A DNA stretch of 23,984 nt from Escherichia coli. GTDB lineage: Bacteria > Pseudomonadota > Gammaproteobacteria > Enterobacterales > Enterobacteriaceae. The DNA lies in NCBI RefSeq assembly GCF_003334305.1, contig NZ_QOWS01000038.1; one strand, given 5' to 3'. The notes under the pieces were generated by a model, which was given only the letters and a program-made list of their open reading frames with translations, made no database searches and was not told where the DNA came from. The translations under genes were made by a program, and so were the position numbers. This document shows positions 22,348-22,395 of the stretch, one piece after another (position 1 is the first letter of the stretch; each line of letters starts with the position of its first letter).

Positions 22348-22395
22348 TGTGCGTTATAACGGACAAATGCTACGGTGCCTGTACGCTATAACGCA
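22348..22395. promoter_or_regulatory. pair of palindromic repeats in the ydcN/ydcO divergent promoter, candidate YdcN operator
   Basis: TGTGCGTTATAACG (core CGTTATAACG, a perfect 10-bp palindrome at 22350-22359) and TGTACGCTATAACG (core at 22384-22393), same orientation, centres 34 bp apart. Confidence 0.4.

Follow-up and report, generated by a model that had tools for sequence, protein, structure and literature searches.

Two 18-bp palindromes in the short spacer between the divergently transcribed genes sutR (formerly ydcN) and ydcO of Escherichia coli are, with a high degree of probability, operators of SutR, whose dimers would block both of the divergent promoters, leading to autorepression and to the repression of ydcO. 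The spacer was studied in a window of 23,984 nucleotides (the whole stretch of contig NZ_QOWS01000038.1 that was analysed), where it occupies 91 bp (22315-22405) between the ATG of sutR, which lies on the minus strand and ends at 22314, and the ATG of ydcO at 22406, in agreement with the length given in an earlier note on this DNA. That note, made from the letters and predicted reading frames, had seen a repeated palindromic motif and read it as a site for the neighbouring XRE/cupin regulator, serving both autoregulation and control of the BenE-family transporter gene. The operator reading has held up well, as the sites are positioned over the regulator's own promoter and that of the transporter, the arrangement is conserved, and binding to the spacer has been published.

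It was in fact the published record that had moved ahead of the note. In 2015, Yamamoto, Nakano and Ishihama gave YdcN the new name SutR, for "regulator of sulfur utilisation" (PMID 25406449), and genomic SELEX with the purified protein has "ydcO/ydcN" among its targets (PMC5934670). ChIP-exo with YdcN-8myc later found 62 sites in vivo (Gao et al. 2021, PMC8464067). The strongest YdcN peak in the genome, 33 bp long with a signal-to-noise ratio of 1344.75, lies in this spacer (PMC8464067 Dataset S4). To call the operator uncharacterised is therefore outdated, as is the statement that the regulon is undefined, since RegulonDB gives a SutR regulon of cysE, fliAZ-tcyJ and sutR, with ydcO not among them (PMC5934670). 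SutR binding to the ydcO/sutR spacer is already known from RegulonDB/EcoCyc and the ChIP-exo dataset, and occupancy has been shown both in vitro and in vivo. The site found here is the same DNA as the K-12 SutR site of the 2015 SELEX study, the 2021 ChIP-exo study and RegulonDB/EcoCyc, the spacer being 100% identical to K-12 MG1655 (NC_000913.3 1506081-1506171), and it is present as a single copy in 5412 of 5426 complete E. coli genomes at an identity of at least 90%. The K-12 publications examined do not set out that there are two sites, that these overlap both mapped promoters, that ydcO is the conserved target or that the arrangement is kept outside E. coli. In the literature searched, no ligand of SutR is reported and no documentation of ydcO repression by SutR was found. 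The b1433/b1434 rows in the RNA-seq tables of the ChIP-exo study have b1434 still expressed, with a log2 fold change of about +0.9, and so do not look like a sutR deletion (PMC8464067). A 2026 preprint that came up under "SuTR" describes an unrelated mammalian reporter.

The two genes on either side of the spacer were readily assigned. SutR has an N-terminal XRE-type helix-turn-helix (Pfam HTH_3 PF01381, residues 12-64, E = 1.5e-16) and a C-terminal cupin (Pfam Cupin_2 PF07883, residues 105-171, E = 3.9e-10), with 1Y9Q (full length) and 6B8W (cupin domain) as its nearest solved structures. YdcO scored 703.8 bits against the benE model TIGR00843, the cut-off of which is 203.4, with residues 1-382 covered. 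These assignments agree with RefSeq, which annotates sutR as "DNA-binding transcriptional regulator SutR" and ydcO as "BenE family transporter", along with rlhA and insQ. An open reading frame of 478 aa with a GTG start (22145-23581, plus strand) runs through the 5' end of sutR and the whole spacer; it was rejected as a mechanical upstream extension of ydcO with no real product, and the mapped ydcO start site falls inside it. The features of the region are collected in Table 1.

Table 1. Features of the sutR-ydcO region, in window positions; promoter positions are relative to the mapped start sites.
Feature	Position	Strand	Details
sutR (ydcN) CDS	21778-22314	minus	178 aa; XRE HTH and cupin regulator; from ORF and Pfam
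sutR transcription start site (G)	22328	minus	14-nt leader; PMC3415461
sutR extended -10 TGaTAAACT	22337-22345 (hexamer 22337-22342)	minus	-14 to -9; 18-bp spacer to -35
ydcO -35 hexamer TTGTGC, within site B	22347-22352	plus	3/6 consensus; -36 to -31; putative assignment
Site B (repeat 1), probable sutR-proximal SutR operator	22348-22365		18-bp palindrome TGTGCGTTATAACGGACA; matrix score 30.7 bits
sutR -35 hexamer TTGTCC, within site B	22361-22366	minus	3/6 consensus; -38 to -33; putative assignment
ydcO extended -10 TGcTACGGT	22368-22376 (hexamer 22371-22376)	plus	-12 to -7; 18-bp spacer to -35
SutR (YdcN) ChIP-exo footprint	22373-22405, centre 22389		NC_000913.2 1504105-1504137; PMC8464067
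Site A (repeat 2), probable ydcO-proximal SutR operator	22380-22397		imperfect 18-bp palindrome TGTACGCTATAACGCACG; matrix score 28.9 bits
ydcO transcription start site (A)	22383	plus	23-nt leader; 51-mer located in window
ydcO CDS	22406-23581	plus	391 aa; BenE-family transporter; predicted main SutR target

The earlier note had described the motif as a pair of 14-bp repeats, TGTGCGTTATAACG (22348-22361) and TGTACGCTATAACG (22380-22393). The two repeats are real, being identical at 12 of 14 bases with their starts 32 bp apart, and the part of the description that did not stand was their extent, as the unit is an 18-bp palindrome rather than a 14-mer. In a repeat search the direct copies grew to 17 nt (22348-22364 and 22380-22396, 82% identity), and the two were also reported as inverted arms of 20 nt (22346-22365 and 22380-22399, 85% complementary); both descriptions apply, each copy being a palindrome in itself. 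The core of repeat 1, CGTTATAACG, is a perfect 10-bp palindrome, and that of repeat 2, CGCTATAACG, an imperfect one. The full unit emerged from the orthologous spacers, which gave the 18-bp consensus TGTGCGTTATAACGCACA, often flanked by T on the left and A on the right. The 24-kb window holds three matches to the degenerate core CGYTATAACG, every one of them in the spacer, compared with an expectation of 0.08, and none of 100 shuffles reached three. A full-text literature search for the string CGTTATAACG returned only unrelated papers.

The ChIP-exo data allowed the palindrome to be set against in vivo binding. Comparison of the gene coordinates in the two versions of the K-12 genome (ydcO 1502929-1504104 and ydcN 1504196-1504732 in NC_000913.2; 1504905-1506080 and 1506172-1506708 in NC_000913.3) gave an offset of +1976, and the strongest YdcN peak could then be placed on the window, where its centre coincides with that of site A at 22388.5. 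A matrix of 20 nt and 27 bits was built from the sites in orthologous spacers, with the Escherichia clade excluded; the scan with it covered the regions of the ChIP-exo peaks along with some 500 kb of DNA from the orthologous loci. Within the window, the best position after sites B and A scored 4.0. At seven of the eight strongest secondary peaks (dppA, yehB, fucO, ttdB, caiF, mltD and ydiY, with yffQ as the exception), the best match in the 620 bp to 2 kb scanned, most often about 650 bp, lay within 0-3 bp of the centre of the peak, for which a binomial estimate gives a probability of around 1.6e-13. The best matches at the fliA and ynfF peaks were central too, bringing the count to nine of ten other SutR peaks. 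The 18-bp palindrome is the in vivo motif of SutR, and the MEME motif derived from the YdcN peaks is likewise stated to be palindromic in the ChIP-exo report (PMC8464067).

The secondary sites score between -0.9 and 16.8 bits and most of them are intragenic. The second strongest peak in the genome, at dppA (signal-to-noise ratio 140.56, PMC8464067), holds the 16.8-bit match ATGAACGCTAAAACGCACAG at NC_000913.3 3708114-3708133 (315-334 of the retrieved region, L082), about 410 bp upstream of the dppA start codon, and is the only strong secondary SutR site that is intergenic. A dppA gene is also targeted by the Pseudomonas XRE-cupin factor PsdR (PMC7901475), which may be a coincidence. For cysE, which is in the SutR regulon list and absent from the ChIP-exo list, 1.5 kb covering the gene and its upstream region (L094, NC_000913.3 3781600-3783100) contained no recognisable SutR palindrome, the best score being -8.3 bits.

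The position of the palindromes became informative once they were aligned with the transcription start sites mapped by Kim et al. 2012 (PMC3415461, supplementary file 2), who placed the start of ydcO at 1504127 on the minus strand (12 reads) and that of ydcN at 1504182 on the plus strand (48 reads) and gave the upstream 51-mer of each. For the orthologues in Klebsiella, a look for recorded start sites gave none. A consensus promoter scan of 22200-22520 had returned nothing in the spacer; both promoters were missed because they are of the extended -10 type with -35 hexamers matching the consensus at three of six positions, below the scan threshold. The -10 hexamers of both promoters are also non-consensus. 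Site B extends from -35 to -18 of the ydcO promoter and from -37 to -20 of the sutR promoter, and its outer arms are the two -35 hexamers, one per strand, so that a dimer on site B would cover the -35 element and the promoter spacer on both sides. Site A spans -3 to +15 of the ydcO promoter and -69 to -52 of that of sutR. That the sites overlap experimentally mapped core promoters has thereby been shown; the module is also conserved.

In the mechanism that we propose, a SutR dimer would bind each 18-bp palindrome in a spacer whose divergent promoters overlap, with extended -10 elements and weak -35 hexamers. A dimer on site B, which is expected to be occupied in vivo as well as site A, would sit on both promoters, and a second dimer on site A would cover the ydcO start site. 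The outcome would be steric occlusion, with autorepression of sutR and tight repression of ydcO, and a small molecule at the cupin domain would release SutR and relieve the repression. We infer that the sign of the regulation, above all at ydcO, is negative. Occlusion is favoured because the core-promoter positions of the sites and the behaviour of the XRE-cupin factors of Pseudomonas match. The factors studied there (PsdR, PauR, ErfA, PA0535, PA1359, PA1884 and PA4987) act locally, as repressors of neighbouring genes whose core promoters contain their palindromic sites (Trouillon et al. 2021, PMC7901475).

SutR could instead act from sites A and B as an activator or a dual regulator of ydcO, sutR or both, for example if ligand-bound SutR remodelled the 18-bp promoter spacers. 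The annotation of SutR in K-12 as a "dual" regulator points this way, as do the weak -35 and non-consensus -10 hexamers of both promoters and the flagging of the top YdcN peak as bound by RNA polymerase (PMC8464067). We nonetheless consider activation or dual control unlikely, as the stretches covered by site B in both promoters and by site A at the ydcO start are positions of occlusion. Extended -10 promoters, moreover, need no activator help at the -35 hexamer, which counts against activation here. All of the Pseudomonas XRE-cupin factors tested turned out to be repressors (PMC7901475).

It was also asked whether the repeats might be unrelated to SutR and serve another regulator, such as PlaR, form an RNA hairpin or attenuator, or be a chance inverted repeat. 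The genomic SELEX targets of PlaR do include the SutR and YdcO operons (PMC6958661), and the two arms could form a 20-nt hairpin; the coincidence of the motif with SutR peak centres and the chance expectation of 0.08 nevertheless make any such origin extremely improbable. PlaR (YiaJ) itself was rejected, its box ATnTGAAACnnnGTTCAnTT being unrelated and having no match in the spacer at up to five substitutions, with the sole match located in the sutR coding sequence. A hairpin or attenuator was rejected as well, as neither of the two mapped transcripts holds both arms, the ydcO and sutR mRNAs starting at 22383 and 22328 and leading away from the repeats. The ydcO leader folds no more stably than its shuffles (z = -0.77), and an Rfam search gave nothing above threshold, its sole match being a miRNA model at 20 bits with a gathering score of 74.

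Support for SutR operators over both promoters also came from the orthologous loci. One genome per species was scanned with a SutR alignment, which yielded 80 loci at 52-91% identity, and a divergent ydcO lies directly upstream of the sutR homologue in 78 of them. The earlier note had suggested checking whether the repeats persist in orthologous spacers, and they do: both palindromes are found in 73 of the 78 spacers, from the Enterobacterales to Halomonas, and one in the other five. Both are likewise present in the spacers of Salmonella enterica and Klebsiella variicola, which were retrieved on their own. When 39 short spacers were aligned, conservation was confined to the palindromes themselves, a pair of -10-like elements, both ribosome-binding sites and the start codons. 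Of 71 distinct spacers, 66 have TG-n-TAnnnT at a constant distance from site B in the direction of ydcO; in the direction of sutR, TAnnnT is present in 48 and absent from 23 of the 71, some of which have a separate promoter-like element nearer to sutR, and autoregulation may therefore not be universal. Over the roughly 500 kb of the 80 loci, the matrix found no match of at least 10 bits outside the sutR-ydcO spacers, and three loci without ydcO have no palindrome.

The same survey bears on whether site A is the sole working SutR operator, with site B kept mainly as the -35 and spacer of the overlapping promoters. The one 33-bp ChIP-exo peak in the spacer lies on site A only, and the coincidence of the outer arms of site B with both -35 hexamers could account for part of its conservation. 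Site B, however, is the site that the matrix favours (Table 1) and the better conserved full palindrome: a site B-type palindrome is present in 77 of 78 spacers, conserved even at central positions that have no promoter role, and is joined by a second, ydcO-proximal one in 73 of 78. The five single-site spacers are split, four retaining the sutR-proximal palindrome and L044, in which site B has degraded below threshold, only site A. A spacer in which site A alone serves SutR is thus very unlikely, and two working operators remain the preferred arrangement.

The degree of symmetry differs between clades. In the Enterobacteriaceae loci L004-L055, the inner arm of site A is consistently degenerate, reading …AACGTCCG or …AACGGTCA and not …AACGCACA, and site B is near-perfect. 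Serratia and Erwinia have near-perfect copies of both. The distance between the palindromes also varies. The earlier note had placed the repeats about three helical turns apart, which is correct for the 32 bp of E. coli and does not hold elsewhere, where spacing ranges from 27 to 45 bp by clade. Measured from start to start, it is 27-28 bp in the Erwinia group, 29 bp in Mangrovibacter, 30-33 bp in the Enterobacteriaceae, 36-38 bp in Serratia, Pectobacterium, some Halomonas and Paenalcaligenes, 40 bp in Rahnella and Yersinia, and 45 bp in one Halomonas. Helical phasing was accordingly rejected as a conserved feature, and the range of spacing argues against an obligatory cooperativity of two dimers on one face of the helix.

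Several known systems can be compared with the sutR-ydcO spacer. The Pseudomonas XRE-cupin repressors share with SutR the combination of HTH_3 and cupin domains, an intergenic palindrome beside the regulator's own gene, a site within the core promoter, and a suspected autoregulation together with control of a neighbour. They differ from SutR in their recognition sequence and in their targets, as SutR faces a single BenE-family transporter gene and not genes for enzymes or a pathway. The well-studied E. coli repressor of putrescine utilisation, PuuR, has the XRE-cupin architecture of SutR and acts from sites between a divergent gene pair. SutR is no orthologue of it, matching the PuuR equivalog model over the helix-turn-helix region only (41 bits, with a cut-off of 211), and both motif and target differ. 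The layout also resembles that of TetR and tetA, in which two palindromic operators lie in a spacer of less than 100 bp between divergent regulator and transporter genes with overlapping promoters. The two systems would work alike, although SutR is not a member of that group and the protein families are unrelated, with a TetR fold in one and an XRE-cupin architecture in the other.

A broader reading, which we offer tentatively as somewhat short of an even chance, is that SutR is essentially a dedicated local repressor of YdcO in an old two-gene sensor-transporter module, with the YdcO substrate as the signal and the "sulfur utilisation" regulon being secondary. The module ranges from the Enterobacterales to the Halomonadaceae and Paenalcaligenes. 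This reading is suggested because no genes other than sutR and ydcO stay together throughout the loci (rlhA comes after sutR in the Enterobacteriaceae alone) and the loci that lack ydcO also lack the operator. It is suggested, too, because the full palindrome, at 29-31 bits, is found only in this spacer, the other ChIP-exo sites tested reaching at most 17 bits and being mostly intragenic, and because the cysE region has no recognisable site. Evidence from the present comparison favours the BenE-family transporter YdcO, rather than genes of sulfur metabolism, as the conserved target. The analysis also supplies an exact definition of the operator, as two 18-bp palindromes of the form TGTGCGTTATAACGCACA, and a model of the promoters at base resolution, with both -35 hexamers supplied by one palindrome; the ydcO promoter would make a clean reporter with which to screen for the SutR ligand and the YdcO substrate.

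A number of individual loci depart from the common pattern. In Kosakonia cowanii and Enterobacter sp. JUb54 (L015, positions 2935-2997, and L016), sutR has been kept while ydcO and both palindromes have been lost; a co-directional ORF of 298 aa lies upstream of sutR, and all that remains is the sutR-proximal promoter-like element GCGCTATACT, which is common to other Kosakonia spacers. In six loci of Raoultella, Kosakonia, Phytobacter and Klebsiella (L017, L018, L019, L023, L029 and L092), the distance between site B and sutR has grown to 130-310 bp and the spacers contain a second promoter-like TATAAT or TATACT near sutR. The transcription of sutR in these clades may be partly free of operator control. 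One record titled "Chryseobacterium sp. 18061" (CACSKA010000006.1) holds a sutR-ydcO pair of the enterobacterial type, at 71-72% identity to E. coli and with both palindromes, and the assembly is probably mislabelled or contaminated. In Salmonella enterica subsp. arizonae (L060, 3001-3558), a tblastn match to SutR at 61% identity has no intact plus-strand ORF of at least 80 aa for SutR and no palindrome in the locus, and ydcO is a fragment of 65 residues; this sutR looks like a decayed copy. The module is intact in S. enterica subsp. enterica.

Two further observations concern the surroundings of the spacer in E. coli. A peak of the sigma-28 (RpoF) holoenzyme in genomic SELEX, with an intensity of 16.1, falls within ydcN, some 34 bp from the start of the coding region (PMC5493296), at NC_000913.2 1504230, which corresponds to approximately 22280 in the window. 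Directly past ydcO is an end of IS609 (23621-23911 on the minus strand, and beyond), which carries insQ, a gene for a TnpB-family RNA-guided endonuclease. The insertion is polymorphic, since in some E. coli genomes the match ends at query position 1878 and insQ is missing at this place.
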